From: Naegleria gruberi | Taxonomy: Eukaryota | NCBI GenBank assembly: GCA_000004985.1 | Contig: GG738864.1 | DNA: 64,000 nucleotides | Strand: one strand, 5' to 3' | In this document: piece after piece, positions 1,750 through 58,729 of the stretch | How the letters are laid out: every line of letters begins with the position of its first letter | How positions within the stretch are numbered: the stretch's first letter is position 1 | Notes under the pieces: model-generated | What the model was told of the DNA's origin: nothing | The model's input: the letters and a program-made list of their open reading frames with translations, nothing else | The model's database searches: none | Made by a program: the position numbers and the translations under genes

Positions 1750-3483
1750 TTGTATAAATTATTTGAGATTCTTACTTGGTTTAATTGTTACAAAAAAAAT
1801 GACAAGAAACAAACATCACACAAATGGTGGGTTTTTTCCTCTGCTGACACTGATGAGAAGAAATCTTCTCCACCATCGGAGAAGAATACAAAATCAACAA
1901 TTTCATCATTATTAACTTCGGATGTAAAAACTCTGACAAAAATTGATACCACCACAAAGAAGCAGGATACAAGAAATAATGGATTGCAAATACCATCGGA
2001 TGTCATGTTGTGGACGATTGAACATGTGCAAATTTGGTTGAAATTTAAAAAGTTTAATGATGCAATTATGCAATCTTTCATGAAGGAAAAAATTGATGGA
2101 TTATCGTTGTATTATTTGACGATTAATAATTATTTGAAATTGGACGATCATCATTTGAATATTGACAAGTTGGGTGATTTGATCCATTTGAAACATGAAT
2201 TGAGTTTATTGTTTAAAGATGTACAACCACCTGCCTCTTCTGCTGTTGTGGTTGGTAATTTGCAACCAGTGATGCCTGTCATTCCAAGCGTTATTCCAAC
2301 TGTTGCAGATGTTGTACATTCACCAATAAGTCCAATTAGACTAATTTCCAAAGATGACACTCATATTATTACCAATACTGGTAGTTTGAGTCCTGTTCCT
2401 CAAATGGCTAGACATGCTTCATCTCCATCCTCTCTAGCTCACACCATTCCATTTGTTCCTTCACAATTAGAGTCACTTCTGCCCCCTTCCCTTCCTCAAA
2501 TTTTCAAACAATTAATTCCATCAGAAATCAAAATGATGAGCGAGAAGGAAAAGGAAGAATGGTCATCCATGATTACCAAGGTCATTGTTTCATTTTGTTA
2601 TGCCATGTTTGCCATCTTTTGTACAAGTGTTACCATGGTAGTAGTTCACGAAAGAGTTCCAAAAGATTATCCTCCACTCCCAGATATTATTCTAGACAAT
2701 TTACCTTTGATTCCAAGTGCATTTGCAATCTCTGAGTTTATTTGTGTAGTTTTGGGCCTCATTGTATTTTTTATTTTAGTAATTCACAAGCATAGAGGAA
2801 TTATTTTCAGAAGAGTTTTGGTGATTATTGCCTCTGTATTCTTACTCAGATGTATTACCATGTTCATTACTTCATTGAGCGTACCAGGTACACATCTTAC
2901 TGCATCATGTATGGCAACAAGAGGTATGACCACAACCTTTGATGACAAGCTGAAGAGAGCTTTGGAAATTACTTTTGGATTTGGAATGAGTATTATGAAT
3001 GTAAAGACTTGTGGCGATTACATGTTCTCAGGACACATGTCCATGATTACAATTTTGAATTATACCATTAATGAATATACACCAAAACATTGGAAAGGAT
3101 TGCACATTATTACATGGGTTTTGAACTGTTTTGGAGCATTCTTTGTTTTGGCAGCTCATGAACACTACTCAATTGATGTTTTTATTGGATTTTTCATTAG
3201 TAGTAGATTATTTGTCTATTATCACGATACTGCCAACATGAGACACATTCTCAATTTGCACAATATTGAAACAACAGCCTATATTCCACTCTTTGATTAC
3301 ATGGAAGATACTGTTGATGGAGTTGTAAAGAATGAATTCATCATTTCAGTTGGAGAAAAGGATCACAGACATAGACCATTGCATTCTCTCGATCCTCAAA
3401 CAATTCACACTCTCCAAGAACAACAGCAACAAATAGCCTCCACTCTCCCAACAGAGCAACAACACCATCATCAATACCACTAA
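1750..3483 (+). CDS. SAM-domain sphingomyelin synthase family (PAP2-like phosphatidylcholine:ceramide phosphotransferase, SMS1/SMSr-like).
   Basis: The ORF contains the SMS D3 motif CGDYMFSGHMSM (C-G-D-x3-S-G-H) and the D4 motif HEHYSIDVFIGFF...FVYYH (H-Y-x2-D-V-x3-Y...Y-H). There are about 6 predicted TM helices. An N-terminal SAM-like helical domain (IEHVQIWLKFKKFNDAIMQSFMKEKIDGLSLYYLT) matches the SMS1/SMSr arrangement. The first in-frame ATG is at 2005. The frame stays open back to 1750 with no ATG, so the start is either 2005 or lies in an unresolved tiny upstream exon. Confidence 0.75.
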   Translation: MYKLFEILTWFNCYKKNDKKQTSHKWWVFSSADTDEKKSSPPSEKNTKSTISSLLTSDVKTLTKIDTTTKKQDTRNNGLQIPSDVMLWTIEHVQIWLKFKKFNDAIMQSFMKEKIDGLSLYYLTINNYLKLDDHHLNIDKLGDLIHLKHELSLLFKDVQPPASSAVVVGNLQPVMPVIPSVIPTVADVVHSPISPIRLISKDDTHIITNTGSLSPVPQMARHASSPSSLAHTIPFVPSQLESLLPPSLPQIFKQLIPSEIKMMSEKEKEEWSSMITKVIVSFCYAMFAIFCTSVTMVVVHERVPKDYPPLPDIILDNLPLIPSAFAISEFICVVLGLIVFFILVIHKHRGIIFRRVLVIIASVFLLRCITMFITSLSVPGTHLTASCMATRGMTTTFDDKLKRALEITFGFGMSIMNVKTCGDYMFSGHMSMITILNYTINEYTPKHWKGLHIITWVLNCFGAFFVLAAHEHYSIDVFIGFFISSRLFVYYHDTANMRHILNLHNIETTAYIPLFDYMEDTVDGVVKNEFIISVGEKDHRHRPLHSLDPQTIHTLQEQQQQIASTLPTEQQHHHQYH

Positions 3484-4041
3484 ACACTTTACAATAATAA
3501 AAAAATCAATTTACAACATTAATAAAGAAAAAACGCAAAAATGTGCAGGTCACCTTTCCAAGTAAAAATGACAAATTAAAATATCAAGTAACAAAAATGG
3601 GCATTTTAAATACTGTGAATCTTTAAGCTTGGCTGATTTTTTTTTTACCTATGCTGATCGTTGTTGGCTTAAACCTCCTTCTCATACAACAACAAGATAA
3701 ATTATTCATGACGAACATTTACCAAGCATCACAACTAAATGGTCCAAATTAGTTCTTGTCGAATTATGTTTGGTGATGCACCACCAACAAGAAGCCTCTC
3801 TGAATATTATTTGAAGTACCAAAATCAAAAAAAGAAGCACAAGAAGCCTAATAGACAATTCGTATTGTTTAGCTCCTCCACTTTCCGAATATTTATAATA
3901 ATATAATACTAATAGTACTACTATTATTATTACTGTTAATTGGTTGAACAAGAATCTTTGTGTTACTCATTGACTAATTTTCTATATACTGCTGCTTCTT
4001 TTTAGACAAATATACAAACAACAATTACTACTAACTAAATA

Positions 4042-11097: not shown

Positions 11098-12303
11098 CCA
11101 AAGGTGTTACAATACTCGAATAATACAACAGGATCGGGTGTTGTTGGAGGCTATTTTTGTTTCAGCTTTACTTGTGTTTTTCAATAATGAAAACTGTTGG
11201 AGTAGTGTGTTACTAGTTGTTCTATGTGACAAATTCCAAATAAAAGCAGCTACAACTTTCTTATTTGTTGTAATTGCTAGCTTTCACAAATATATTTATG
11301 AAATATTGGAATGTTGAAGAACAAGAGGAATATGATGATGATAATGATGAAAGAGGTTTACTCTAATTTTTTTAAAAAGATAGGTGGAACTAGGCGGAGG
11401 GAAAGAGAATCCCATTTAGAATCTTTGTCAGCTATTGGCATTTCAGGGTAGTCCATCTGTCGGCATCTTACAAAATCCTCAATAAATCTTTTTGATTCTC
11501 CCAATTGGTTGTTAGCCAACTGTTGTTTAAGGAAAATGAGTTAATAAGTAATGTAGTTGTAGCCGGTATTGAGGTCTTCAAGTCAGTAGATTATGTTCAA
11601 AGTTGTGAATGTTTTATAAACATAGAATTGGAGAACTTTTAATGGTTTTGAAGTATACTATACATCTCAAAAAGAACCCGATCAAATTAGATGCAGAATA
11701 TCGAGCAATAATGTCAAATAGTGGCGCCATTGCACAGATTCTATCTAATGGTCATCCAAACATTCGCCAACTATCCTCTTTAGAATTCATTTTCGTTGAG
11801 TTGTATTGCATTGATATTTGAAACAGTTCAATCTTGGGTGTTTGAAACAGAAAATACACAGAATTGTGTGCAAAGGACGGAGTGCTTGATCTGTGGGTGT
11901 TGGTAGCCATACGAATGAAATTTGAAGGTTTCCAACTTGGTCAGAAAATTTCGTATGCATTTTGGGAAACATTTGCTAACAATAAAGTTGTCAGCCAAAT
12001 ATTTTTTAAAGTAATGTTTCATTAAAGATGGGTTCCCAAATCACAATAGAGATTAATTTCATCGATCGAGATTTTGAATAGTAGTTTGATTAGTGCCAGG
12101 AAGAAACTCTGTAATGGAAATACTCCAGAATAATCACGAAAATTGGTCAGGAATCTCGGTGTAAATTGTAAACAAAGTTTACAATGAGATATCTCATAGG
12201 GTATTACATTCAATCTGATTCTAACTGTTTGTAATTCAATCAAACATATTATTGCAATTTCTAGAAAAATGAATCTTTTTCGTTTACGGCATTAATACAT
12301 GTA

Positions 12304-35493: not shown

Positions 35494-37987
35494 TTGGGCA
35501 ACAAGTTAATTCCTTCATACAAAAGAGTACTCATTATCATTCATCACTCTCATCATCAAATAGGAATGTTGGATATTACTCATCAATTACCTCCGGAAAT
35601 ATTGTCAAAAGTATTTTCATATGTAGCTAGGGAACCATTGTATTTGTATTGCTTTTCAAATTTACCACTCGTATGCAAGACTTTTAAGAAATTATTGGAA
35701 ATGGCAATTTGCGTTCATCATGATGAGGGATGTATTGATGATCAATTAGAGTTGTCATTTTCAACAAATATCAAATCAACCTTTCAACATAATTTAGTGG
35801 TTGATTTTCTGACTCTTCCAATGCTATCAAAGATTGTAAACTCAAAAAGATTGAGTGATGTTTTGAGTGGTGTTTCTCAAATTTCAATTTTGGACCTTTC
35901 TAATCAGAGATTAATGTTTCAAGCACTACTAAAACAAAACATCAATGAATTACTCAATATTTTAGAGAGTATCTATTTGAAAGGAAAGATAATTAGCAAG
36001 ATTTATTTGTGTGGATGCTTTTCAATCGGAGAATCAATTCAAATGACTAATTTTGTAAAAAGTTTAATAACCATGCATAGAAAATCCACTTCAAAGAATC
36101 TATACATTGACGTTTCTCCTCTCTTTTCTCACAATGAGGCATCTAATGAAGCAACAGAATATTTGAGCTATAATATGGCTGTCACAGAATTGCAAGCAGA
36201 ATTTGAAGATCAGGGTATTCAAATAGTAGATTGGTTTGATTTATTATTCAATCCTATTGAAAGTGACACTGAGTTTTTAGAAAGATTGACCTCTGTAGAT
36301 CCAATGAATATTCCACACGTAAATGTAAAAGGGTGGACTCTTCTACATTCCTCAATACTCAACAGCTATTTCAAAAGTACTCAATACCTCTTGAGTTTAC
36401 CACAAGTTAATGTAAATATTTTCAGTGTTGCAAGTTTCTCCAATGATGACACAATTCGAATTGAACATGATGAAGATGAAATTTCTCCAATTCTTCACAA
36501 AACTGTTCCTACTGTAGATTTCAAATTGAAATACAAAGGCACACCATTATTCTTTGCCTTATATAAGTTGACTTCTAACACTCAATCCTCCTCCTCTAAA
36601 GATGGTGAAGTTGTAGATATGCTTATCCAAAGAGGAGCATCTGTTAATATTGTAGATAATTATGGAAGATCATTCCTACTGATTGCTTTATCATATGGTT
36701 TTCCATTTGATTTTATTACTCATATTGTAGAGAATTTTGGTCAAGTGCACCAATGTGACAACAATAAGAATAGCATTTTCCATCAAATATTCTATTCTCC
36801 ATCTCTATTGAAAGATACAAGGAAAACCAAAAAGGTCTTGGACTTCCTCTTCACCAAAGATTCTCTATTGAGTAATCAAGCTAACGCACCTGGTTTATTA
36901 CCTATTCAAATTCCTTTCCTCTTTTCCAATATGAAAAACATTCTCAATAAGGACTGTGCTTCAGAGTTAGTAATTGCTATTGCACATTTCATCAAATGTG
37001 TAGATGTAAATTTAGGATTGGAAGCATCCACCATGTATATTAATATGGCTATTGATGACTGCCTAACTCTTATCAATGAGTCTAAATTTTCCAAAAAGAA
37101 AATGTTTGTCATTACAAACAAGATATTTATTGGGCTATTGAGAATTAAACTAGATATTTCCTATCATATTGACAAGACAGATATTAATCAAGTAAGAAAT
37201 GAATTTATGAGATTGGATGACGAGTTGGGTCATAATGTTCTTCATAGAATGAAAAAATTGGATTGTATCAAGTCATTCTTTAAATTTCTAGAGCTAGATA
37301 GAGTATCCTATTACTTTTATATTAATAATCCAGATGTTAATGGAAATACTATCCTCCACCATTTAATATCATCGAGTGAAAATGAACTTCAACTCTCGAA
37401 CGATGTCGACAGAATAGTTGAAGAATTATTTGGAGATGTAGGATATAGAAACAAGGAGGGAGAAACACCAACATCTCTTTCAGCTTTGAACGGATACTAT
37501 GCAACAGTTCAGTAAGTTTTTCGAATATTTTTGTAAACTATATAATTATTTCAGTTTTATGCTTTCCAATCAACAAACAGCTCACTACTCTGAGAGACAA
37601 ATCATTGCCCACAACGATAATATACTTCACATTCTAAGAAGTAACAGAGAAAGTGCTTCCAAGAGTTCTGACAATAAGAGACCCTGCCATTCCATCAATT
37701 CTTGTATCAAACTCATTGAACAACAAAACGAAATGCTCATTCAAAATTCCAGAAATCCAAAAACCAAATCCATTAATTTAGCACTCCTCGAGGAGGAATT
37801 AAGAGGAGACAGCTACTCTGATGATAGTAGCACCTCATCAAGAACTAGCTCTGCACCCTCACTCTCTCTCATGGATGTCATCAATCTCAGCAAGGAAAAG
37901 AAACAATCATCCAAGAAGAAAGCTCAAGCCAACAAGAGAAACAAGAAGAAGAAAAGCAAGGAAAAAGACTTTGCCCTCGTCAAGTAA
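35494..37987 (+). CDS. F-box-like plus ankyrin-repeat protein; 2 exons.
   Basis: Exon 1 is 35494..37511, ending ...GYYATVQ-. The donor is GTAAGT at 37512, the intron is 43 nt and the acceptor is CAG at 37554. Exon 2 is 37555..37987 and continues in the frame of track ORF 37499. F-box-like: QLPPEILSKVFSYV. Ankyrin units: KGWTLLHSSILN; YKGTPLFFALYKL...MLIQRGASVNIVDNYGRSFLLIALSYG; VNGNTILHHLISS. The C-terminus is Lys/Ser-rich. Confidence 0.55.
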
Positions 37988-38158
37988 ATATTTTACCAAC
38001 ACACTTTTATCCCACTATTCGGATTAAACTAATAGTCGTCATCATGATGCAAATAATATTGGACAAGTATTCGGATAATTATTATTGTGAAGAGAAAATC
38101 TTTATCAAAAAAGCAATGAATACGAAGAACAAGAAGGAACAATAACAATAAGAAAAAA

Positions 38159-39608
38159 ATGTCCACAACATTCCTTGGTATTGTCATTCATTTTGCCAAT
38201 CCTTTGAATGGCGAGAATCAGAAATTACTTCTCGGAAAGAAAATCAACATTAACGATTATGATCACTTGATCACTCTGATAAAACAAAAGATTAATGAGA
38301 GTAATTCATCATCGAGTATTGAATATAATTTTTATAACGTCTTGTTGGAGGTGGAAGATGTAAATAGTAAAGGATCGTTTCATAGGCTAACGAATTTTGA
38401 TGAATTAATAACAAACAAAGACAAGGCTATACAAATTAAAGTTTCATCAGTTGAAATTGTTTCAAAGAGTAAAGAAGCTAAACCAACAGAAACTTCATCT
38501 CCTACCGATCAATCATTAACATTCCGATTGAGTCAATGTGCCAATGATGAATTTACTGATTATCAAGAGGATTTTGAAGATAAATTAATTTATGGAGATG
38601 ATTTATCGACAGTGGAAAATAATGCACAAGCACAGAGAACTGCCAGATGGAATGGAAGATACGAACCAACAACACTATTGGGATCTGGAACTTTTGGAAA
38701 AGTATTTCTTTGTGGAGAGTATGCATTTAATGGTACTCATAAAGGAACTGTTGCTGTGAAATTGATTAATTTATTAGGAACTGTTGAAGATTTCAATAGG
38801 AAAATTAAGGTTAGTTTTCTTTTTGAGATTTATAATGACTCTTTATTAGGAAGCCCTCTTCATGTTAAAATTGAAACACGATTCTATTATGCCATGTTTG
38901 GACTTGTTTGAAATTTATGATAAGGATACAACAGAACAATCGTTGGCAATTGTGTCTCCATATTATATTCATGGTGATTTGATGAAACAATTGCAAACAC
39001 AAAAGGAAAAGAAGGAACCACTTCCAGAGGAAATTATTTTTTCAATCACAAAAGATATACTCAGTGCTTTAACATATTTACATTCTAATGTTGGTGTGGC
39101 ACACAGAGATATTAAACCAAATAATATTTTCTTGGAAAAGATCAATTTGGGAAGGAAAACAGTCAAGATGGTTCTTGGAGATTTTGGAATAGCTCGAGAA
39201 ATGACAAGTGAAACAATGAAAAATGCCACAACTGCAGGTACACCACTCTATCTTGCTCCTGAAGTCAATTTTGGTAATTACAATTTCAAATGTGATATTT
39301 ATTCATTAGGTGTTACCCTATATCAAATGCTAAGCTTGGATTTGGAAACAAATTTGATTTCAAAATGTTTTTCAAACCATCCTTTAGATACATTACAACA
39401 ATCTTCCAATGCCAAGTACATTTCTGATTACACAGAACAAATGATTATGAGAAACTATCCAAAAGAAACCAAAACACTGAAGAAACTGAAAGGTAAGCAA
39501 TTCTCTTAATAATGAGATTTTTAATCTTTTCAAAAAGAAATGATGTTTTTAATGTTGACATACAACTACAAAAAGAGACCTAGTGCCAAATACTTCCTAG
39601 AGCAACTT
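38159..39608 (+). CDS. Protein kinase (Ser/Thr-type catalytic loop) with a ~170-aa non-kinase N-terminal region; 3 exons.
   Basis: - Exon 1: 38159..38809, containing GSGTFGKVF and VAVKL.
- A 40-nt intron follows (GTTAGT at 38810, acceptor TAG at 38849).
- Exon 2: 38850..39491, containing HRDIKPNNIF, DFGIARE, GTPLYLAPE, DIYSLG.
- A 45-nt intron follows (GTAAGC at 39492, acceptor AAG at 39536).
- Exon 3: from 39537, encoding ...YKKRPSAKYFLE... (subdomain XI RP motif).
- The exon-3 stop is read at about 39606-39608, but my reading of this line is uncertain by 1 nt; the alternative stop is 39650. Confidence 0.7.
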
Positions 39609-39691
39609 GAAAAGAAAGGAATTAAGCAGTTATTTGGATTCAACAAATAAATATCTATTTATCAATTTTAGTGATATTTATTTTAGTTGAA

Positions 39692-40657
39692 TTATGAAAT
39701 GCAACATGTTCTACTCTTTACAACTTTTCCTTTTGGCTCACTTTCAGTTTCACTCTTATCTTCTGCAGTGTAATTTATAATTGGAGCTACAATTACCTTA
39801 GTAGCACCTTCCAATTGTCCTTGAGGAAGTTGCACTCCAACCAACATGGCAGCAAGCTTGATAAATGATAAATTTACCATGTCACCAGTTTTAGCAGAAA
39901 CAAAGAAAGAAGATAATTTGTGATATCCTGCCCATTCATCGTGGGTTTCTCTTTTGACTTTTCTTTCGTGACTCAAATCACACTTGTTAGCAAATATACA
40001 AATAACTGGATCTTTAGATTTTTCAGAACTCTTTCTTCCTTCATAACTATCAGAGAAAATATGTTTCACGTATTTTAACCATTCTTCCAAGTTTTTAAAG
40101 CTTTCCAAATTTGTAATATCGTAAGTAAGGATAACAGCATCGGAACCATAAATATAACTAGACAATAATTTTGATCCCAAACTTTGACCCTCTATTATTT
40201 TGTGAGTTAGATCATTAAAATCAAAAACACGTACCAACATCCCAAATTTGAAAGCAAACTTCAATCTTTTTGGTTTTCTTTTGTGATCCCTCTTCAGATG
40301 ACTCGGTATGGGCTGCTTGTTGAGCAGGAATTTCGGCAACTATCGAAACATTCTTGATGAACCAATCAACACCAACAGTCCTTACATAGGATTGCTGGAA
40401 TTCGTCCTCAGTAAATCTTCTAATTGTTGATGTTTTACCAACAGTACCATCTTATCATCAACGGAACGTTACTAAAATATTTAAATTTGATATTACATAC
40501 CACCAACAATAATCACTTTGTATTGATATTTATTATCACCATCGTCATCACTATCATCTTGAACTTCTTCAACTTTTAAATCCTCAAACTCGGCTTCTAC
40601 ATTGCTCTCCAGAATTTTACTGCCCGACATTTGTTTAGTCAAGTTACTTTGGCTCAT
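39692..40657 (-). CDS. Rab-family small GTPase with an acidic N-terminal extension and a C-terminal CC prenylation motif; 3 exons.
   Basis: - Exon 1 is 40657..40501: MSQSNLTKQ...DDSDDDGDNKYQYKVIIVG-.
- A 50-nt intron follows (GTATGT at 40500, acceptor AAG at 40451).
- Exon 2 is 40450..40235: -DGTVGKTSTIRRFTEDEFQQSYVRTVGVDWF...IWDV- (G1, G2).
- A 43-nt intron follows (GTACGT at 40234, acceptor TAG at 40192).
- Exon 3 is 40191..39692: -EGQSLGSKLLSSYIYGSDAVILTYDITN...FANKCDL...SAKTGD...SRTCCIS.
- Switch II reads WDVEGQS, so the catalytic Gln is retained. Confidence 0.8.
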
Positions 40658-40861
40658 TTTTTTCTTATTTAAATGATGATATTTAAAATTCGTAAAATGA
40701 AGGCGGGAATCTCATCCAACACCTTTTGAGGTCGACAAATAAGGATCGACCCCTATATTGGTAAATTTGAGTGCTTTTGTTAGACCAAGAAGAGATTCCA
40801 CATTTTATATTTTCATGTAAACTTTATATTCCTGGATGTAGTACTAATGTAAAATCAACTT

Positions 40862-41613
40862 TTATTCATTATTTACCTTATTATTGATAACTGATTGGAG
40901 AACTTGATTAGTTAAATCCTTAACAACAACACTAGCTCTAGATCCAACCTTTCCAATAGTTTCATTAATTTCAGTTTCATGCTTGTTAAGCAATGGTTCA
41001 ACATATTGGTGATAGAGCATTGTGGCACCTCTTGTTTGTGGAGCAATCAACCAAAGAATAAAAGCAATTTTAATTTCCCAATAGAATGGAATGAAAGTAA
41101 CAATGATCAACAAGTAGTATTCAATAACATGAACAAAAGAATAAATAATCCAATAAGTTCTATTTTTCATATTAAATAAATATTCATATTATATGATATT
41201 GATCAGTACATCATCATTATCAATTAATTAAATACGAAAGTAAATTAAATATTCGGAAAAAGTATTAGAAACCTACAACCACTGTTTATCATCATCTCCA
41301 CCAGGTGATCTGATTGCCTTGAAAGAAGCATAAGCAGGTAAGAGGAATGCAATCAAATGGCAAATAAATTGAGAAATGGCAGAACTGTTTTTCATCAATT
41401 AATTGATCAGCAAAACATTTTAAATTTTGAAAATTCCTACCTGAACAAGTATTCGACACTATCGGAAGAAACAGCTCCATCTTTTTCAACATAAACTACT
41501 TTAACATTGGCCGATGATGATTTATCTTCAGCAGCAGCATTTACAAATTGGTGATTCAAATAAGCTAAACCACAACAGACAAGAGCAGTAGAAGCAAGAA
41601 TTGATGTTTTCAT
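40862..41613 (-). CDS. DP1/Yop1/REEP (TB2/HVA22) family membrane-shaping protein; 3 exons.
   Basis: - Exon 1: 41613..41441 (MKTSILASTALVCCGLAYLN...SVEYLF-).
- Intron of 56 nt (GTAGGA at 41440, acceptor CAG at 41385).
- Exon 2: 41384..41277 (-SAISQFICHLIAFLLPAYASFKAIRSPGGDDDKQW-).
- Intron of 117 nt (GTAGGT at 41276, acceptor TAG at 41160).
- Exon 3: 41159..40862 (-LTYWIIYSFVHVIEYYLLIIVTFIPFYWEIKIAFILWLIAPQTRGATMLYHQYVEPLL...).
- The conserved ...PAY.S.KAI...DD.QWL.YW... and ...P.T.GA..LY...P... blocks match the family. Confidence 0.65.
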
Positions 41614-45776: not shown

Positions 45777-48700
45777 ATGAAAGCATGTTTTTTCGTTCTA
45801 CTCTTGCTCTGCATCTTTCTGTTCAGCCTTGCAAGTCAAATTGACTCACAAAGCCTTCAATATAATATCAGCACGGTTGCAGGTGGTGGTTCTATTGTGG
45901 GTGATGGTTTATTAGCTAATGAGGCTATAACAAGCTACCCGTGTCAATTGGCAATTAGTTCGATTAGTGGAGATTTGTTTTTTGGAGAGGTGGTATCCAA
46001 TAGGATTCGTAAAATTACATCCTCAACTGGTGTGATATCTACTATTGCTGGAACTGGAACTGGTGCATATGGTGGAGATGGCTCCATGGCTACTGCTGCT
46101 CAATTGTTTTATCCTTATGGTGTTGCTCTAAGTTTGGGTGGTGAAATTTATATAGCAGATTCGAATAATAATAGAATTCGTAAAATAGCTACAAATGGTA
46201 TTATTACAACAATAGCAGGAACTGGAACACGTGGATATGATGGAGATGGTGCTTTGGCCACAAGTGCCAAGTTGAATTTTCCTTCATCCATAGCAATTAG
46301 TGCAACCAATGAAATTTATTTCACAGACCAATTGCAATCATAGGATTCGAAAAATAGCAACTAATGGTAATATCTCAACAATTGCAGGAACTGGAACTGG
46401 CAGCTATGGTGGTGACAATGCAATTGCAACAGGTGCACAACTTTATGCACCTGCATGTATTGCAATAGATTCTAATGGTGAATTTTACATTTCCGATTCA
46501 ATGAACCATCGTATTCGAAAAATAGCTACTAATGGTATTATTACAACAATAGCAGGAACTGGAACACATGGATATGATGGAGATGGTGCTTTGGCAATTA
46601 ATGCACAATTATACAGCCCCACGGGGGTTGTTGTCAACTCAAATGGTGATGTTTATATTGCTGACTCAGGTAATAACAGAATTCGAAAAATCTCAAAAGG
46701 ATACATCTCAACAGTAGCAGGAAATGGAATAGCTGGATATAGTGGAGATGGTGGACTATCAACAAGTGCTCAATTAGCCACTCCCCAATCAGTTGCTATT
46801 AATTTAAATGGCGAGATTATAATTGCAGATTCTAATAATAATAGAATTCGTAAAATAGCAACTAATGGAAAAATTTCAACAATTGCTGGAACATCATCAT
46901 TTGGAAATAACATACCAGCTACTTCAGCATCCATCTCACCAGTTGGTGTTCCCACTCTCTACAATAATAAGATAATTTTCGCAGATGAATCTCAAATTAG
47001 ACAAGTAGACCTTGCAACTAATATCATTTCATTAATATCTGGAACTGATTATTTGGCAAGTCCTACAGCAGCTATGTATTTCAACAATGAATTATATATT
47101 CTCTATTCAAAACTCAATTTAGATAAGCCAAAGATTAATATTGTTTCAAGAGTTGTTGGTTCTGAGGGATATAATGGCGATGATATTGCAGCCACTAGTG
47201 CACTGTTGAATTATGCTCGCTCAATTGCTGTCAATTCAAATGGTGATGTTTATATTGCTGACACTTATAATAACAGAATTCGTAAGGTCTCATTTTCAAC
47301 TGGAATCATTTCAACAGTAGCAGGAACTGGAATTGCTGGACAAAATGGTGATGGTAATTTAGCTACAAGTGCACAACTAAATTTTCCTTCAGGAGTTGCT
47401 GTGAGTTCAAATGGTGATATTTATATTGCTGACACTGAAAATCATAGAATTCGTAAGATAGAAACTAATGGATACATTGCAACAGTTGCAGGATCTGGAG
47501 CATCTGGATATAGTGGAGATGGTGGGCTGCTAACTAGTGCTAAATTCCAACAACCTCAAGGAGTGGCTGTGAGTTCAAATGGTGAGATTTATATTGCTGA
47601 CACTGAAAACCATGTGGTTCGTAAAATTTCAACTTCGAATGTACTTTCTACAATTGCTGGAACTGGTTCTTATGGATACAATGGTGACGGTGGATTGGCA
47701 ATTACTGCAAAATTATTCTCTCCCATAGGAGTTGCAATAAGTTCGAGTGGTGAAGTTTTTATTGCTGATAATAACAATCACAGAATACGTAAAATTGCAA
47801 AAGATGGCTATATTTCAACAATTGTTGGCACTGGTTTGAATGGGTATGATGGAGATGGCGATTTGGCTACGAATGCTAAATTGGGTAATCCTCAAGGTGT
47901 GACTCTAAGTCCAACTGGTGAATTGTTTATTGCTGACCAAAACAATCATAGAATTCGTAAAGTAGCAAGTAATGGATATATTTCAACTGTTGCTGGTAAT
48001 GGTAACTTTGGATTTAGTGGAGATGGTGATTTGGCAACAAATGCTGAATTGAATAGTCCTTCAGGAATAGCATTCAGTTCCATTGGTACCATGTATATTG
48101 CTGATCGTTTAAATAGAGTAATTCGAAGAGTAATCTCTGGTAATATATCCACCATTGCTGGAGGTGTTGGTGATGGAGGACCAGCTACTGGAGGATACAT
48201 TCAAGCACAATCATTTGACATTTCTTCAACTGGTGAGATTTATATTGCTGACACTGAAAATCATAGAATTCGTAAAGTTTCAACATTGGGTAAAATTTCA
48301 ACTATTGCAGGAACTGGTGCAATGGGATACAGTGGTGATGGTGGATTGGCAATTACTGCAAAATTATCCTCTCCCGTAGGAGTTGCAGTTAGCTCAACTG
48401 GTGAAGTTTTTATTGCAGACCGAGACAACCATAGAATTCGTAAAGTAACACTTTCTGGTATCATTACAACCATTGCAGGAAATGGAACTAGTGGTTTTAA
48501 TAGTGATGGAATTGAAGCAAAATTTGCTCAATTGAATAGCCCTTCCTCAGTCACAATTTCAGGTGGTGAAATCTATATTGCTGACACAAACAATCATAGA
48601 ATTCGTCAAATATCCAATACTGGTATTATTAAAACAATTGCTGGAAATGGATTTGGTGGATATATTGGTGATGGTGTATTGCCACCTAATGCTCAATTGA

Positions 48701-51700
48701 ATAGTCCTTCAGGAGTTGCAATTTCTTCCACTGCTGAAATTTACATTGCAGAAAATAAGAGAATTAGAAAACTTACAGCGTTCTGTACAGAGAATGGTGT
48801 GTTGATTGATGGAAAGTGTGTATTTCAATGTTTTGGATATACGAATAGTAATTCCTCACTTGTTTGTTCTGGAAAGGGCAACTGTATTGGAAATGATAAG
48901 TGCAACTGTTCATGGCCATACTCTGGTTCCAAATGTGATGAGTTTTATTGCAATGGAGTGTTGAATACTAACAAAACATTTGTGTGTTCATCTCATGGTA
49001 CTTGCTCATCTCCAAACAATTGTTCTTGTGTCGATGGTTTTTATGGAAATATTTGTGAATTCTTTTATTGTAATGGCGTACAACAAAATAGTTTAAATGT
49101 ATGCTCAGGTCATGGACTCTGCTCTTCTTTGAATAATTGCACCTGTCAACAAGATTATTCAGGCATTGATTGTGAAAATTTCCATTGTTATGGACTGTCT
49201 AGAGTTGATCCTAAAGTTTGCTCATCTCATGGAATTTGCTCTTCCATAAATAATTGCTCATGTGCAACTGGATATGGTGGATCTAAATGCAACGAATATT
49301 CATGTTATGATGTGAATTCTACGAATAAGACAGTTTGTTCTGGAAGAGGAACTTGTTCTTCTCCCAATAATTGTACATGCGATCCAGGATACTATGGATC
49401 AAATTGTGAATTGTACGATTGTTATGGAATATCCAAAAACAATTCGAATGTCTGCTCAGGACATGGTACTTGCATTGCTATCAATAATTGTACATGTACA
49501 GATGGTTACTATGATACCAAATGTGATTCATTCAATTGTGCAGGAGAGAAATTCACTGGTCAATCACTGTGTCAGAATAATGGTACTTGTTCTAATCCTG
49601 GTAATTGTGATTGTCCTTATCAGTTTGGAGGTGCCAGATGTGAATATTACAAATGTTATACCTATACTTCTAATGAAGCAAAAGTATGTGGCGGGCATGG
49701 TACTTGTTTAAATTACAATAATTGTTCTTGCTCTGGCAAGTGGATTGGTGACGATTGTACACAGACTACTTGTTATGGTAAAAGTTCAAACTCTAGCTCA
49801 GTATGTGGTGGAAGAGGTAATTGCACAGACTTTAATCAATGCACATGTTATGATGGGTATAGAGGTGTCGAATGTCAACACATTGTCTGTTTTGATAAGA
49901 TTGAAAACGATACATCAGTTTGTTCAGGAAATGGCAAATGTCTAACATCAAACAATTGTACATGTCAAATTGGTTATGTTGGAAATGAATGTCAATATCA
50001 CGAAATTTATTTGAATACCTCATCTGCCATAATATTTTCATTCCAGGAAAGTTTAATGAAATTGTTGCCAAATGAGAGTGGAATATTTTCATGTTCTGAA
50101 ATTTTCACTGATTCTGAAATTGCCAAATTTGGAGAAAGTACTTCGATTTCTTGCCAATGGAGAAGAAATTCACTCCTAATTCATCTTGGATTTGATTATT
50201 CTATTCAACAATACTCAATTATTCAATCAAAATTCAACTTTTCAATGAGAGTTTCTAGCTTGTCCTCAGTTTCTAATAGTGATGCTCCATCTCCAACTTG
50301 TTCTTTCGGATATGTATTGAATGAAGCTTCTCCATTATTGGATGTAGTGATACGTTTGAATTGTGATGAGAATTTGCATGGTTTTAAAAAGAGTAGAACC
50401 AGTTGGATGTGTAGTCAATGTACAGGAGCAATTTCATCAATTTTAAGTAACTATTCGAATAGATCCAGTGTTTATATTCCAATTTCGTATATGAACGCTT
50501 TGAATCCTGTTCAAGGATACAAGACAATTAATTTGCAAGCTTCTTATTCATCATCTGTTTCTTCCACCATTTCCACTAGTAAGGAAGTAAAGGTTCAAAC
50601 CTATACGAAATCTTTACCTCCAAGTTATTACTGGCTAAGTGATAATTATGATGGAAAAACCTATTCATGTGTTGGCCATAATTGTATCATTGAAACTTCA
50701 TTGAATAGTTTAAACTCCTCAATTTCTTATTCATTCTCTGGTTTATTTAGTTTATTGAACACTGATTTATATTCGAAACAAATGGTGAGATTGATAAATG
50801 AATTTTCAGGAGGAATTGTCGACAGTGAATTCAGTTCTAACATGCAAGTTTTTGGAGTTCAACTCAAGACCTATGTTTACTTACCGTATAGTATTGATTC
50901 ATTCAAATATTCCACATTTACAAATTTGGATTATGTCATGACAGGCGTCAATAGAACCTACTCAATCAATGCAGATAACTTAATAACTATAGGTTTGACT
51001 ATTGATGATCCATACATTTCAAAATACACATTAAGTGATTACATGGTATTCTCCTGGAAATGTTTCCAAGTTTCTCCTTCTAATAGGTCTTTAATTTTGA
51101 CCGATAATTTGTGTTCCTCAATAACTGACAATGCCAAATCAAATATTGAATTGGATATCAGCAAAATGTCTTTGAAAGAAGGTTCATATTTAATATCTGC
51201 TTCAATTTCATCGACTAAATACTTTGTTACAACAGTTTACAATTATGAAGGATGGATTGACTTGTTGGGAATTTCACAGGATTCTCCTCAGATAACTACA
51301 GATTATGTACCTGCTATTACTCCTTCTCATCACAATATTTATTTAAGAAATGTGGTGAAATCTTCAACAAGTGTTTCATTCTATTGGAAACTCAAAAGTG
51401 GTGAATTGAATATTGACGAAACTGTTGAAGATTTCCTTCAAAGAAATACAGTTTCTAAATCTATCTTGGGTAACAATGTTGAAATTATCTTGAATATTGA
51501 CAATGATTATCTCATCCAAGGAGAATATTATGAATTTGAATTGTCAACCAAGAATTCTAACGGTGTTTCAAATATTTCCATTTCAACAAGAATGGATTTC
51601 ACTCCTCGATTGTCATGTAATGTGGAAAATGTGAAGAATGAAGCTAACTTGACCAGTTTTGAATCTTTAATATCTATTACATGTGTAAAATTGCCATACG

Positions 51701-54134
51701 AAAGTATATCAAGTTTCGTCATGGAATTCCATTCACAAAACGAAAGATTAGGAGTCATTTCGAATACTCCAAAGAAGGCTCTTATTACCAGAGTTCCTTA
51801 TGCAATGGATGGAACAGTTACCTTAATCGTGAAACTTCAAAATTTATATGGATCTATTGGAATTTATAGAACTACTATCAGCGCTCAATTACCAAATGCT
51901 TTGACAAGTGACAACTCTATTTCTTCAAGATTTACATATGTATCCAAACAATTCCAAATTCTCAAAAATGCTCAACCAGCCAAAATTGAAGTTTCCAACG
52001 AAGTCAACACCTTACTTTCTTTATTAATCCAAAACGAAACTCTTTCTAAAATTTCAGAGAAAATTTCAAAGGAATTGAAATCTGATCAATTAGTTTCCTT
52101 TAATACAATGCTCAAAGAAATGCTAACCCTCACCAAGAGTCTACAAGACATTACTTACAAAGTTGATGAAAGATTAATTCAATTAATTCTGCCAATTGTC
52201 AACAAAATTTCCACAATTCTCAAATTAACTCTTGACACATCGTCATTATCCAATTTTGCTTCAGAATTGGAAATTTGGTTGGACTGGATTTATTCAGGAA
52301 TGAATAAGGCACTCAATTACTATCCAACTTTCATTTACAAGGAATTATTAGATGAATTTCATTTACAAGAAATTGTTTCGTTACAAAATATACTTTCGAA
52401 TATATACCAAAATAATTTGGATCAACAATTTAAATACCACAAGTACAATTTACAATATATCAAGCTTACAGGAAGTAATAGTGATAATTCAAGCTTTGTG
52501 GAAGATGTTGAGTTTTCTGATTTATTGAATGACAAGTCAATTTCACTTTCTGTTTCTAATTTTAAAGTTGATATGAAATTACCAAGTGATTTTACCAATC
52601 AAATTTCATTGAAATCAAAATCAAAACTATACTATTCCATTACCTCATTCAGTGATAATCAAACTGGTTCAAAACTTTTACAAAACAAACCAATAATTGA
52701 CCTATCTCTGTACGATACATCTTACAATGCAATATCAGTTGACAACATTAATCCACCAATAGTTTTCAAGTTCCAAGGATTGTTTTCCACTAACAAGACT
52801 AATATTAACACAACTTGTGTCTATTACAATACCATACTAGGAAAATGGTCAACCAATGGATTGCAAACAATTACAAGCGTTACCAAACGAACTGAAGAGT
52901 ACATGTACTTTGATATGGAATGTCATTCAAGTCACTTGTCTGTATTCTCAGTTCAAGAGGTTGATTACAACACCCCAATTATACCAGCCATTTCATCTAA
53001 CAAAGCTTCAAACCAACAAGAAAATCTCACCATTATTTTAGCTACTGTTTTACCTGTTAGCTTTTTAATCCTTATTTTCATTATTATCCTCTTTGTGTTT
53101 ATCATTTTACTATTCAGATTTAAGCAAAAGAAAGCAAATGAATTTGCCATTGCAACCAAAACCAATCTTGAAATGGAAGGTTTCTCAAGCAGTGATTTCC
53201 CATCCTCAGAAGGAAGCATGTTTATTCATCCTCTTATGAGTATTTCCTCAAATGGAACAACTAGTGAAGCATTCAATCCATTGTCAAGATATTCTGATTT
53301 AGTAAGAATTGGCCAAGGAGCTTTTGGAAGTGTTTTTAAAGCATTTGATAGTAAGACGTCAACTGTTAAGGCGATTAAGGTAATTAAATATTCATCCATG
53401 GAGGAGTTGAATAATTTCATGAAAGAAGGAACGCAGTTGATGAATGTGACACATCCTTATATTTTGAGAGTGAATGATTTCTTTGTGAGTAAGGATCAAT
53501 TGCTATGTATAGATATGGATTTTTATGAATTAGGAGATTTGGTCAAATTGACCAATGTTGAATTTGATTGCTCGGAGAAGTTAATCAAACAAATTATTTA
53601 TCAAATGTGTCAAGCTTTGGATTATATTCACTGCAATATGAAAATCATTCACAGAGATATCAAACCATCTAATGTTTTTGTAAAGAGTATGGAAAATGAC
53701 GATATTCACATTATTGTTGCCGATTTCGGATTGGCTAAATCAAATATTGGTGGATCAATGAATAATTCCTATGCAGGTACACCTATATTTATGGTAAGTT
53801 TTCAAATATTTCTTTCGATTCGAATAATTTTTAGTCTCCTGAACTTGGCTTGGGTGGAAAATATTATTACAATACTGATATTTACAGTTTAGGTGTTACT
53901 GTATATCAAATAATGACCAAAGACACCTCTACTTCAATCAGTCAATTGTATCTTGGAAAGGAACAAAATGAAGTTACAACGCTATTGAGAAAAAAGCTTA
54001 AAGATGGTGGACATTATTCTGAACGAGTTGTGGAATTGGTTTTACAAATGTTAACAAAGGATAATTTAACTAGGCCACAAGCTCAAGATATTTTGGAAAA
54101 TTCCTATTTTGATGATTTGAGAATGAAACGATAA
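45777..54134 (+). CDS. Giant receptor-like Ser/Thr kinase: signal peptide, ~25 NHL repeats, ~20 EGF-like modules, ~1,300-aa unknown ectodomain, TM and protein kinase. Interrupted by an apparent +1 frameshift near 46328 and by one 41-nt intron in the kinase domain.
   Basis: - Track ORFs 45777..46343 and 46300..53892 encode the same ~55-aa NHL unit (...NHRIRKIATNGIITTIAGTGT.GY.GDGG.AT.AQL..P.GVA....GEIYIAD..) in two frames.
- Deleting one C from GACC at about 46328 restores ...EIYFTDNCNHRIRKIATNG..., matching the repeat consensus.
- EGF-like units: CSG.G.C...N.C.C..GY.G..C.
- TM segment: LTIILATVLPVSFLILIFIIILFVFIILLF.
- Kinase motifs: GQGAFGSVF, VKAIKV, HRDIKPSNVFV, DFGLAKS, GTPIFM.
- Donor GTAAGT at 53794, acceptor TAG at 53834.
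- The last exon runs from 53835 and encodes SPELGLGGKYYYNTDIYSLGVTVYQIMT...RP.A.DIL.., through to 54134. Confidence 0.7.
45990..48790. repeat. Tandem array of about 165-nt coding repeats (NHL units) with the recurring core aatcatagaattcgtaaaat.
   Basis: The nucleotide motif (a/g)a(t/c)(c/a)a(t/c)agaat(t/a)cg(t/a)aaaat(a/t) recurs about 20 times at 150-170 nt spacing across the 5' third of the giant gene. Confidence 0.7.
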
Positions 54135-54252
54135 AGTTTCTACAATATTTTCTCAATCTAAAATGATTCCTGTCAGATTATTTCACTTCCAATAAATCAG
54201 TAAGTTCCAAGACAATCACAATGGAATAAATAGTGATGAATGATATCATTAT

Positions 54253-55925
54253 TTATTCTTCATCTGATTCGAAAGCCACATTCTTCTTTTTAGGGAATGT
54301 TTGCAGAGCTCTAGATTTTCCTACCGGGCTACTAACCAGTGGATTTGAGATTAATCTACTAAAACTTCCACTATTTGTAGAAAGGGACAGTTGTGCAAGG
54401 GATTGTTTCAAGGTTTCACAAATCTCTTCCCATTCAGGTCTTGCATTCATGTCTGCTGACCAGCATTTAGTAATGAGCTTGATTATCAAATTATTTACAA
54501 CGTTATACTCAATTCTAAAGTGCTCACCAAAGAACATTTCCCTGAGCTCTGTTTGGGTTGGTATCTTTGGACGCATTTCTTCATGAATCACTTTGTGTGT
54601 AATATCATAAATGTTGAGTCCTGGATACAACTCCTTTTCAAAAATTAACTCATATATACAAATGCCAAAACTGTAGATATCCGCTTTGAATGAATAATGA
54701 CCTTCTGCCAAAATCTCTGGAGCAGTAATTTCAACTGTACCACATTTAGTGTGCTTCTTTTGTTTGTTGTTAAATAGCCTAGCAATACCAAAATCTGAAA
54801 TCTTTAGAGTCCAGTCATTAGTTACAAGGCAGTTAGATACTTTCACATCAGAGTGAATAATATTTTTTGATTTGAGATAGTTCAGTCCGTTAGCAGCGTC
54901 CAATAGCAATTTACATTTCTTTTTCAGGGTGAGTCCAGATTTGAAAGAGCTCTTTTGTAATCTTCCTTGTAAGGTCTCATCATCGATTGAAAACCTGGAA
55001 ATGTGTTGTGTATTGAGCTTTATCAGGTTGGTGTCATCTAGCTCCGTTGTCGGTGGGTGATTAATAGGACTCATGGTCATGCCTGCACCAGAATAGGATG
55101 TTTTCAATAGTTTGTCTAAACTTCCTCTCGAGCAATATTCTGTGACAATATAAAAGAATGGAGGTTTGATAGATGCAGCAATGAACTGCACAATATTTGG
55201 ATGTCTGATTGTACTCATTATTTGAGTCTCCTTCATGTACTCTTTCAGTGGATCCTCCAACAAGTCACAAATTAAGCATTGCTTGACTGCAACAAGAACA
55301 TTGAGATATCGTGCCTTATAAACAACTCCACTACTACCAACACCAATTTGTTCCATCAATTCCAAATCATCAGATGAAATACTCATACTTCTCAATTGCG
55401 GAGAGACTCGAATGATCGCATCATTCAATTCCTTTGACAAATCATTGTATGGTAACTCTTCTGGATTTTCAACAGGTTTCAACTTGTTGAAATGTGCATT
55501 CAAATCTTCAGCAATATGAGAGCTAGTATTTAAATCCGTTAAACCACTATCATTCAAATCAATTACTATCGAATTTGAATTATCAACCCTTGATCCCACA
55601 TTGGTGATTTAATTTGCATACTCTTAAAATCCATCTCATCATTCATTCCATAATATTCACCACTATCCCTCTTTTTCATGAGTGGTTTCGTTTTCTCCGA
55701 ATTTTTACAACAATAATTACAAGTTAGTGTATTTACAAGTGTTCTACATAATCCTCTCCTTCCCAATCGACTCTTTATCATACATAGCAAACAACCACTC
55801 ATCATGATATTGACCAATAACATGGCAGAACTTAGCACTATCAATGACCACTGAATCACAGGAGAATCATTCAGTGGTAAAAGCAAGATATTGTTCTCAA
55901 CACTCATCGGAAAATAATAACACAA
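54253..55925 (-). CDS. Membrane-anchored protein kinase (TKL-like) with an HSD (not HRD) catalytic loop; 2 exons.
   Basis: - Exon 1 is 55925 (or the MSVENN Met at 55904) to 55622. It encodes a short N-terminal segment, a TM helix (VIQWSLIVLSSAMLLVNIMMSGCLLCMI) and a Cys-rich juxtamembrane region, ending ...GMNDEMDFK-.
- The donor is GTATGC at 55621, the intron is 33 nt and the acceptor is AAG at 55589.
- Exon 2 is 55588..54253, in frame with track ORF 54253..55599.
- Kinase motifs: GVGSSGVVYKA, VAVKQ, HSDVKVSNCLV (catalytic Asp retained), DFGIARL, APEIL, DIYSFG. Confidence 0.65.
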
Positions 55926-56686: not shown

Positions 56687-58729
56687 ATGAGTGGTGCTGA
56701 TTTTGTGTTGTCTGCCACTACTACCAATAATAACAATGGTGATGATACTATTCATCAAAAGATACAATTATTTACTCAAGCTATTGGTGAGGTAGACCAA
56801 GAAGGAAAGTCAACAACTAATGCAAGTAGTGCTCGTAGGTGGAGTTTTTCATCAGATTCTTCATCCTCCTCTTCTCATTCGTCAAATTCATCATCGGGTG
56901 CAGATGATACTGCTGATGATGAAGATGAAGAAATAACAATGGTTTGGAATAATGCAACTGACAGTAATGTTGATAATAATATTGAAACTAGTGTTACAAC
57001 TCCTTTGAATAATAAGATTGTTATTATTACGAATGAGGAGGACATTGGAGAGGAAGAAAATACATTATCAGACTCATCAGATATTATTTCGAATACTTAT
57101 AATTCAATAGAACAGAAGGAAGAAGATAAACCAGTCGTACCTTCTTATGAAAAGTTTAGTTTGAAAGAACAGTTGAAACTCAAGCTTCCTTCTTCAATAC
57201 TTCATCTCACTTCTCCTAATAACACAACTAGTAATAATAACAGTTCAACACAATTTACAACAACAACACTAACAGACAATAGTTCAAAATCAAGCTCTCC
57301 ACAAACACCAACCGAGAAACCAACAACAAATGGTGATGAATCACTGCAAATCATGGAATTAAATATTGAAAGTCCAAATGAAGAGTTAGACGATACATCG
57401 AGGAGATTTACATTCAATTCTACCGATATTATCAAGGCAGTTTTTGAAGGAAAACACGATGAGGAAGTTGGAAAACTGTTACAAACAGATGTTTCTGATT
57501 ATTTAACACAACTAGTCAAGAGGAAAAATCAAATTACCAATCCAGTGGTGATGCCGAGTCCCTCTCCTATCAAGAGGATGAACTCTACCTTCCTCACTCC
57601 TTCTACACCTTTAGGGATGACAAAGTCTGGCTCATCTAGTGATATATCCAGTCCTTGTTCATCACCAAATTTGGACAAATTGAATACAATTATTGAAAAG
57701 AAAAAACTTTCCAGGTCTAATACTACTGTTCACAATTATACACTCTCCCCAGAATTAAAGCAGAGAAGAAAAATTACAGCAATTGGATCCGGAATGATTC
57801 CAAATGATTTTAATATGGTACAATCTCCATTGAGTGATTATGGAATTGATTTTTCACAATCTGATAGCAAAATAACTGCTTCCAAAAGGTCGATGAGCAT
57901 TGGGCCAAATCTTCAATCCTACTATTCTTCATCTACAAATGCAATGAAGAGTGATCCTAACTCTGTTTCAACAGACGATATTTACAGAGTTACAATTCTA
58001 GGATCTGTTGGTGTTGGAAAATCATCATTAATTAACAAATTTATTAAGGGAACATTCTCCAATGAGTATAATTCTACAGTTTTCGAGGATATTTATCACA
58101 AGCCACTCATGTTTTTGAAATATCAGGAAATTAAGCTTTTGGAAATATTGGACACAAGTGCCCTACACATCAAACATTACAAAAATAAGGCAAATCAAGA
58201 GGATGAATCACCATCCATGGAGATACCTTCAAGTTTTCTTAGTGATTATATTATTAACTGTGATGCATACATACTAGTGTACAGTGTGGATGACATTCAA
58301 AGTTATAAATATTGTAAGGATATTTACAAATCAATTGTCGGTCAGAAAAAGATGGCTGGTCTTAAAAGAACTAGATCAAACTTGAGAGCTAGTGGAAACA
58401 GTCTCATAGCAACGCCAAGAACAGTTGCTCGATCTGATGTTCCTCTTGTCCTTGTTGGAAACAAGTCAGATGTTGGAATTGAGGAAAAATTTATTGATTC
58501 AAAAGTAGTTTGGGAAGATGTACATACAGAGCTAGCATTTGGTTCAAATTGTTCTTTTGTGGAAACTAGCGCCAAGAAGGAAGATGTTGATTGTATTTTC
58601 CAAGCACTTGTAAATAGAATTTGTTTGAGGGAAGAACCAAAGACTTCTTCCAAAATACAAATATCCTCTTCACTTCCAACCAAAAAGACAGGTCAACACG
58701 ATTCAAATAAAAAGTGTGTCATTCTGTAG
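56687..58729 (+). CDS. Ras-like small GTPase domain (C-terminal, CaaX box CVIL) fused to a ~430-aa Ser/Thr/Asn-rich N-terminal extension. Switch II lacks Gly and Gln (DTSALH).
   Basis: - G1: ILGSVGVGKSS.
- G2: YNSTVFED.
- G3: ILDTSALH (canonical DTAGQE).
- A ~30-aa insert follows.
- G4: LVGNKSD.
- G5: ETSAKK.
- C-terminal KKCVIL is a geranylgeranyl-type CaaX.
- The N-terminal extension is low-complexity (SSSSSHSSNSSSGADDTADDEDEE; NNTTSNNNSSTQFTTTT). Confidence 0.7.
   Translation: MSGADFVLSATTTNNNNGDDTIHQKIQLFTQAIGEVDQEGKSTTNASSARRWSFSSDSSSSSSHSSNSSSGADDTADDEDEEITMVWNNATDSNVDNNIETSVTTPLNNKIVIITNEEDIGEEENTLSDSSDIISNTYNSIEQKEEDKPVVPSYEKFSLKEQLKLKLPSSILHLTSPNNTTSNNNSSTQFTTTTLTDNSSKSSSPQTPTEKPTTNGDESLQIMELNIESPNEELDDTSRRFTFNSTDIIKAVFEGKHDEEVGKLLQTDVSDYLTQLVKRKNQITNPVVMPSPSPIKRMNSTFLTPSTPLGMTKSGSSSDISSPCSSPNLDKLNTIIEKKKLSRSNTTVHNYTLSPELKQRRKITAIGSGMIPNDFNMVQSPLSDYGIDFSQSDSKITASKRSMSIGPNLQSYYSSSTNAMKSDPNSVSTDDIYRVTILGSVGVGKSSLINKFIKGTFSNEYNSTVFEDIYHKPLMFLKYQEIKLLEILDTSALHIKHYKNKANQEDESPSMEIPSSFLSDYIINCDAYILVYSVDDIQSYKYCKDIYKSIVGQKKMAGLKRTRSNLRASGNSLIATPRTVARSDVPLVLVGNKSDVGIEEKFIDSKVVWEDVHTELAFGSNCSFVETSAKKEDVDCIFQALVNRICLREEPKTSSKIQISSSLPTKKTGQHDSNKKCVIL

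Follow-up and report, generated by a model that had tools for sequence, protein, structure and literature searches.

The gene described here encodes what is probably a membrane-anchored, catalytically competent Ser/Thr kinase of the TKL group, from a small family whose known members all come from Naegleria or a few uncultured relatives. It lies on the minus strand of the window (the whole 64,000-nt stretch of Naegleria gruberi DNA that we analyzed; G+C 33.8%), with its ATG at 55907 and its stop codon ending at 54253. The value of the result is chiefly corrective: The public model of the gene (P0002) is without the membrane anchor and part of the kinase domain, and a 33-nt intron proposed in the initial annotation breaks the reading frame. 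The corrected protein of 532 amino acids would define the family as one of anchored TKL kinases, with the pathogen N. fowleri among its carriers.

Gene structure and strain comparison

The hydrophobic N-terminus and the kinase domain are found in separate reading frames on the minus strand. Coding exon 1 (55622..55907) comprises residues 1-95 and the first base of codon 96 and holds the exodomain, the transmembrane (TM) helix, and the polybasic, Cys-rich start of the juxtamembrane region. Coding exon 2 (54253..55565) is an open frame that carries the rest of the juxtamembrane region, the kinase domain, and the C-terminal tail, with the stop codon at 54253..54255. The 5′ limit had been placed at 55925, which reads TTG; the ATG that fits the N-termini of the orthologs (MSxxxxLLPLNxSP) is at 55907, and no AG acceptor was found between the last upstream in-frame stop and this ATG.

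Joining the exon 1 frame to the kinase frame needs an intron whose length is 2 mod 3. The 33-nt intron proposed at 55589..55621 has GT and AG ends, but since 33 is a multiple of three, the exon 1 frame is kept and runs through DFK-RLIIQIR into a stop. The 56-nt candidate intron at 55566..55621 (minus strand; GTATGC...TTCGATAG) does qualify, and its removal restores the frame, giving a CDS of 1596 nt and a protein of 532 amino acids.

A metagenome contig from another N. gruberi strain (L001; ENA ERZ929261), 98.4% identical to the window over 4 kb, allows this model to be compared between strains. In L001, the gene is an uninterrupted ORF of 550 amino acids (P0001), with ATG and stop as in the window gene. 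Inside 55566..55621, L001 differs from the window by a 2-bp deletion and an adjacent G>A substitution; the candidate intron is thus 56 nt long in the window, and 54 nt long and in frame in L001. It is the sole short GT..AG option that spans the 2-bp indel, it is valid in both strains, and the spliced proteins of the two strains are identical over all 532 residues. Three other introns that restore the frame in the window, of 53 nt (55547..55599), 41 nt (55547..55587), and 44 nt (55523..55566), have poor donors and leave the frame broken in L001, and we rejected them.

All of the exon differences between the strains are synonymous (eight, against no nonsynonymous change; three in exon 1 and five in exon 2), which indicates purifying selection on the gene. 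The density of variants is about 0.5% in the exons, about 2-3.4% in flanking noncoding DNA, and 1.8-3.6% in the candidate intron. The 118-nt spacer between this stop codon and the convergent one of the next gene (54135..54252) has four variant events, about 3.4%, which is the noncoding rate. A protein-pattern scan of metagenome contigs and an exact 23-mer next to the intron recovered no further alleles.

The splice signals of the candidate are less regular. Verified introns in Naegleria and its relatives are 41-67 nt long (41 nt in the giant gene that neighbors the kinase gene, 67 and 66 nt in N. lovaniensis, 59 and 57 nt in N. fowleri, and 42 nt in the uncultured contig L005), with GTAAGT, GTATGT, or GTGAGT donors and YAG acceptors. 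All six verified introns have GT at donor positions 5-6, where the candidate (GTATGC) has GC, and the candidate's acceptor is without a pyrimidine tract.

These data have to be weighed against an alternative that we regard as unlikely. The L001 interval is open and in frame, so the gene may be intronless as in that strain (550 amino acids), the window copy with its 2-bp insertion being a frameshift allele or an assembly error. The TM exon of the window strain would then yield a stub of 119 residues, with the kinase either not translated at all or lacking its anchor. The straight reading of the L001 frame agrees with this, as do the imperfect donor and the ease with which several frame-restoring GT..AG pairs arise by chance; P0002 leaves the exons unjoined, and the giant neighboring gene seems to be shifted by +1 at a point where no intron restores the frame, which indicates that indel-type defects do occur in the window sequence. 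However, the strains differ here in a complex way, by a 2-bp indel together with a neighboring substitution. Unconstrained DNA would be expected to show such a difference, and a simple error would not, and the difference sits exactly within the best GT..AG candidate. The remaining protein, exon 1 included, is identical between the strains, and splicing yields the same 532 residues from both. We conclude that the mRNA of the window strain most likely loses the 56-nt intron at 55566..55621. With or without that intron, the predicted TM segment and the kinase are parts of one gene, as the uninterrupted L001 ORF and the architecture of the orthologs indicate.

The best named database match is P0002 itself, an N. 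gruberi "predicted protein" of 336 amino acids that is identical to our translation wherever the two align. It starts at an internal Met, omits the TM exon, and splices out 123 nt of the kinase insert (the missing stretches are 55366..55907 and 54964..55086). We rejected its 123-nt "intron" (54964..55086) because the orthologs keep this stretch coding, with a conserved peptide motif. The P0002 model is probably truncated and wrong.

Membrane anchor and predicted topology

The predicted exodomain consists of residues 1-17 (55857..55907, minus strand) and is net acidic. Its N12-D13-S14 sequon, which three Naegleria species share as N-x-S, is only about four residues away from the TM helix. The helix itself (residues 18-44; 55776..55856) has a Kyte-Doolittle maximum of 2.1 over 19 residues, and AlphaFold2 places a single helix at residues 16-48 with a pLDDT of about 82, in a model that was built from six sequences only and has a mean pLDDT of 56.7. 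Asn33, in the middle of the helix, is invariant in four Naegleria-type sequences. Directly after the helix come the basic stretch KSRLGRRG (55752..55775) and then a Cys cluster, CNYCC; such a juxtamembrane Cys cluster is common to the Naegleria-type sequences. The remaining juxtamembrane stretch to about residue 150 (about 115 residues in all) has low confidence in the model and is poorly conserved and disordered. The TM architecture is conserved in P0003, P0004, P0006, and P0007.

The initial annotation described a single-pass protein with a tiny ectodomain, and both parts of that description agree with our data: There is one hydrophobic segment, modeled as a helix, with 17 residues ahead of it and positive charges on its predicted cytosolic side. 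By the positive-inside rule, the acidic N-terminus and the KSRLGRRG stretch argue for an N-out, C-in orientation, from which we infer that the N-terminus is outside and the kinase cytosolic (a type III signal anchor). Candidates for the anchoring membrane are the plasma membrane, an endomembrane, and the outer membrane of mitochondria.

We found no ligand-binding extracellular domain: Pfam matched only kinase families, and the orthologs start at the same point. With only 17 external residues, the kinase presumably cannot sense ligands, and the protein would be a membrane-tethered relay kinase instead of a receptor. Asn33 and the juxtamembrane Cys cluster suggest that it may be controlled by helix-helix association and possibly by palmitoylation. 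More generally, control would probably be exerted through association of the TM helix via Asn33, through lipidation or phosphorylation of the juxtamembrane region, and through proximity.

Kinase domain and family

A protein kinase domain of TKL type occupies residues 163-481 (54409..55365, minus strand), with Pfam scores of 174 bits for PK_Tyr_Ser-Thr (PF07714) and 169 bits for Pkinase (PF00069). Reading along the domain, we find GVGSSG, VAVK (K190), the αC glutamate E208, H333-S334-D335, K337, N340, DFG (residues 353-355; 54787..54795), APE (residues 377-379; 54715..54723), DIYSFG, and ARPEW. The catalytic set is complete (Gly-rich loop, Lys, αC Glu, Asp and Asn, DFG, APE, subdomain IX Asp, and subdomain XI Arg), so the protein is not a pseudokinase by sequence. 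The catalytic Asp, the VAVK Lys, DFG, and APE had all been called retained, and each can be read in the translation. The activation segment, DFGIARLFNNKQKKHTKCGTVEITAPE, spans residues 353-379 (54715..54795), with Arg358 at DFG+3 and with Thr368 aligned to a Ser of the CTR1 activation loop. The domain also contains a kinase insert of 48 residues (255-302; 54946..55089). The insert is predicted to be disordered (low pLDDT) but has a conserved motif, R-[FL]-S-[IV]-D, and is coding in the orthologs.

Among solved structures, the best match is Arabidopsis CTR1 (3ppz; 128 bits), followed by Abl, ZAK/MLT, Fes, Src-family kinases, and BRAF. As a similarity ranking, this order, with CTR1, ZAK/MLT, BRAF, and Tyr kinases as top PDB hits and PF07714 as the best-scoring Pfam family, places the domain in the TKL group. 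Hits with names in the database come from plants (CTR1/EDR1-like kinases, the commonest), Physarum (TKL kinases that also have cyclase domains), and oomycetes (TKL/DRK kinases). IRAK and RLK chains are absent from the best 60 of 1976 PDB matches and from the best 120 database hits, by ranking only, and the EDR1 domain (PF14381) has no Pfam match at E ≤ 0.01. By these comparisons, the protein is a TKL kinase with a Raf-like catalytic domain and a member of neither the CTR1/EDR1 nor the IRAK/RLK family.

Two signatures, VAVKQCLICDLLEDPL and IKPPFFYIVTEYC, mark the family. Among 263 sequences retrieved, after a profile search of 1.84 billion representatives, the family was confined to Naegleria species and three uncultured contigs, and no other sequence of the 263 has the motif CLI[CV]DLLEDPL. 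The profile search, with the L001 protein P0001 (the 550-residue ORF) as the query, was dominated by multi-kinase proteins and returned no new family member with this motif. The orthologs are P0003 of N. lovaniensis (53% identity) and P0004/P0265 of N. fowleri (50%). The three contigs, L004 (GCA_006365135.1), L005 (ERZ27315067), and L006 (ERR14790941), carry more distant members and presumably come from uncultured heteroloboseans.

The HSD catalytic loop

The catalytic loop reads HSDVKVSN (residues 333-340; 54832..54855, minus strand), with Ser334 (codon TCT, 54850..54852) in place of the HRD arginine. This substitution, on which the initial annotation was built, is seen in the window, in L001, and in P0002. 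We checked the serine as a possible sequencing error: The independent L001 contig and P0002 both have HSD, and TCT is at least two or three nucleotide changes away from the AGA codon of the orthologs in both strains and cannot be a base-calling error. With the catalytic residues kept, the label of non-RD kinase is correct by definition.

N. lovaniensis, N. fowleri, and the uncultured contig L005 all encode the arginine as AGA. HRD is found in P0003, P0004/P0265, P0005, P0006, and P0007, of which P0005 and P0007 are the most distant members of the family. With HRD present in these two other Naegleria species and in three more relatives, the serine appears to have been acquired in N. gruberi; on this distribution, the non-RD state is derived, confined to N. 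gruberi (both strains), and no trait of the family. Of the 120 best hits, about 10% are non-RD, as are 13% of the 260 kinase domains among the profile hits, and none of these 260 has Ser at the position of the HRD Arg. The window's three kinases comprise two with HRD and this one with HSD. Literature searches returned no RD/non-RD census of the Naegleria kinome and no intron statistics.

In RD kinases, the HRD arginine contacts the phosphorylated activation loop (PMC8463890). R334S would remove this canonical contact. The N. gruberi kinase keeps Arg358 and Thr368, and its activity would probably depend less on this clamp and more on proximity or oligomerization. By analogy with other kinases, Ser334 should loosen the dependence on the activation loop, or it may be nearly neutral.

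In its strongest form, the neutral reading holds that R334S is effectively drift, that regulation is as in the HRD orthologs, and that the term non-RD is functionally meaningless here. We consider this possible, although we lean against it. The change is limited to one species, the remainder of the catalytic core is unaltered, and 10%-13% of related kinase domains are non-RD. The orthologs of N. fowleri and N. lovaniensis, with Phe at DFG+3 (DFGTAF) where N. gruberi has Arg358, are already without a basic residue there, so the family shows some variation in its phosphate-binding pocket. Yet every one of the six other family members retains the HRD arginine, and the serine codon, which both strains have, matches AGA at none of its three positions. 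In well-studied kinases, moreover, loss of this arginine changes the dependence on activation-loop phosphorylation. By comparison within the family, the HSD triplet is a species-specific quirk of an otherwise ordinary kinase. An arginine and a serine at the same site in close orthologs offer a clean natural pair for the role of the RD arginine in a Raf-like kinase.

The gene has also seen intron turnover. The orthologs of N. fowleri and N. lovaniensis have two introns in common, one within IDQ|IGVGSSG and one directly after H-R-D-V-K (L002:10645-10711 and 11220-11285 in N. lovaniensis; L003:10717-10775 and 11290-11346 in N. fowleri), and contig L005 has an intron directly after H-R-D-V-K at about 3448-3489. 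The N. gruberi gene is without both and has the candidate 5′ intron instead. Three codons separate the site of the lost intron from the R>S change (AGA to TCT), and their proximity may be coincidence. A more far-reaching interpretation, which we think improbable, is that the family is a Naegleria-specific signaling subunit in which Asn33 would pair with ligand-binding membrane proteins, much as the adaptor chains of immune receptors do by means of polar TM residues, and that control of the N. gruberi kinase would have been rewired recently by loss of the HRD arginine at the time when the intron after the catalytic loop was lost. If true, this would be a natural switch from RD to non-RD caught between sister species.

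Comparison with known kinases

The kinase resembles Arabidopsis Raf-like MAP3Ks of the CTR1/EDR1 type in its HxDxKxxN loop of the Ser/Thr type, the GT..APE of its P+1 loop, and the basic residue at DFG+3. CTR1 is a soluble RD kinase that has an EDR1 domain (PF14381) at its N-terminus and is brought to the membrane through its binding to a receptor. In contrast, the N. gruberi kinase has its own predicted TM anchor, no PF14381, a 48-residue kinase insert, and HSD.

With the non-RD kinases FLS2, EFR, XA21, and IRAK1 it shares the absence of Arg before the catalytic Asp, the retention of the other catalytic residues, and association with a membrane (PMC8463890). It differs from the IRAK/Pelle/RLK kinases in belonging, by similarity ranking, to another TKL family, in having no ligand-binding ectodomain or death domain, and in that the non-RD state is absent from its own orthologs. 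Plant receptor-like cytoplasmic kinases, and other membrane-tethered kinases that have no ectodomain, offer a further parallel, since they too are held at a membrane without a sensing domain, and for the N. gruberi kinase a similar relay from true receptors would be expected. It is not a member of their sequence family, however, and its anchor is an N-terminal TM helix, whereas theirs is mainly lipidation.

Single-pass TKL-like kinases have arisen independently in several protists, as the TMKs of Entamoeba, Dictyostelium, and oomycetes show (PMC10463195). These TMKs have sizeable Cys-rich or LRR ectodomains; the Naegleria-type family has 17-25 external residues and is limited to Naegleria-type organisms. 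The HSD triplet itself has a counterpart in human TTK/Mps1 (HSDLKPAN), an active kinase with solved structures, so HSD is compatible with activity; TTK/Mps1 differs in being a soluble kinase of an unrelated family with a mitotic function. Membrane-anchored TKL kinases and sporadic non-RD variants are thus known kinds already, and the N. gruberi kinase is a better-defined example of them.

Genomic neighborhood and the giant NHL-EGF kinase

The neighbor on the plus strand is a giant gene (45777..54134) for a predicted kinase with a signal peptide, 11 NHL repeats, EGF repeats, a TM segment, and an HRD kinase domain. The tail-to-tail arrangement of the two genes is as first described; the distance between their stops (54134 and 54253) is 118 nt, where 119 bp had been claimed.

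The gene order around the orthologs of the membrane kinase in N. lovaniensis (L002) and N. fowleri (L003) is Ank - kinase - Ras - clathrin adaptor sigma - mitochondrial carrier - HVA22 - membrane kinase - cadherin/VWA, and there is no NHL-EGF kinase gene within 10 kb of either ortholog. We compared two stretches of the window, 35587..41392 and 57392..58703, with these contigs. The window is collinear with N. lovaniensis in the Ank - kinase - Ras block (35.6-40.5 kb) and at a Roc gene (57.4-58.7 kb), and HVA22 (40883..41392) and the membrane kinase are inverted with respect to N. lovaniensis. The window contains no match to the clathrin-adaptor, mitochondrial-carrier, or cadherin/VWA gene. The adjacency of the membrane kinase and the giant gene is thus the product of a species-specific rearrangement and lends no support to a functional pair.

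The initial annotation had gone further and proposed an innate-immune, pattern-recognition-type non-RD kinase that serves as signaling co-receptor for the adjacent giant receptor kinase, a proposal that we now consider very improbable. Parts of its foundation are sound: HSD is real, an exodomain this small makes a partner plausible, the two genes do lie tail to tail 118 nt apart, and the conserved Asn in the TM helix suggests helix-helix pairing with some partner. The co-receptor role rested on adjacency, however, and the order HVA22 - membrane kinase - cadherin/VWA is common to N. fowleri and N. lovaniensis, with the giant gene not adjacent. Nor does the TM segment of the giant kinase have a matching strongly polar residue, and the genome is compact, the window alone having three kinases. 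The association of the non-RD state with innate immunity holds for the IRAK/Pelle/RLK family. The closest relatives here are CTR1/EDR1-type Raf-like MAP3Ks and protist TKL kinases, the rankings given above contain no IRAK or RLK, the orthologs have HRD, and non-RD domains occur in 10%-13% of homologs, so the link to immunity does not carry over. The membrane kinase provides no evidence for immune-type signaling in Naegleria and bears on no long-standing question.

The giant gene shows several features of its own. At 46300..46345, an NHL repeat contains the apparent +1 frameshift, in which ...SATNEIYFTD is followed by an extra C and then by NCNHRIRKIA in the next frame. We found no GT..AG intron that keeps both halves, and the frameshift may reflect an error in the sequence, a mutation of this strain, or disruption of the gene. 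A 41-nt intron at 53794..53834 (GTAAGT...TTTAG) splits the APE motif, and the joined protein reads GTPIFM|SPE. In the ectodomain (46300..53793), Pfam reports TEN_NHL (PF25021) with 270 bits and EGF_TEN (PF25024) with 94 bits, together with generic NHL and EGF families; the gene thus has a teneurin-like NHL and EGF arrangement fused to a kinase in a heterolobosean.
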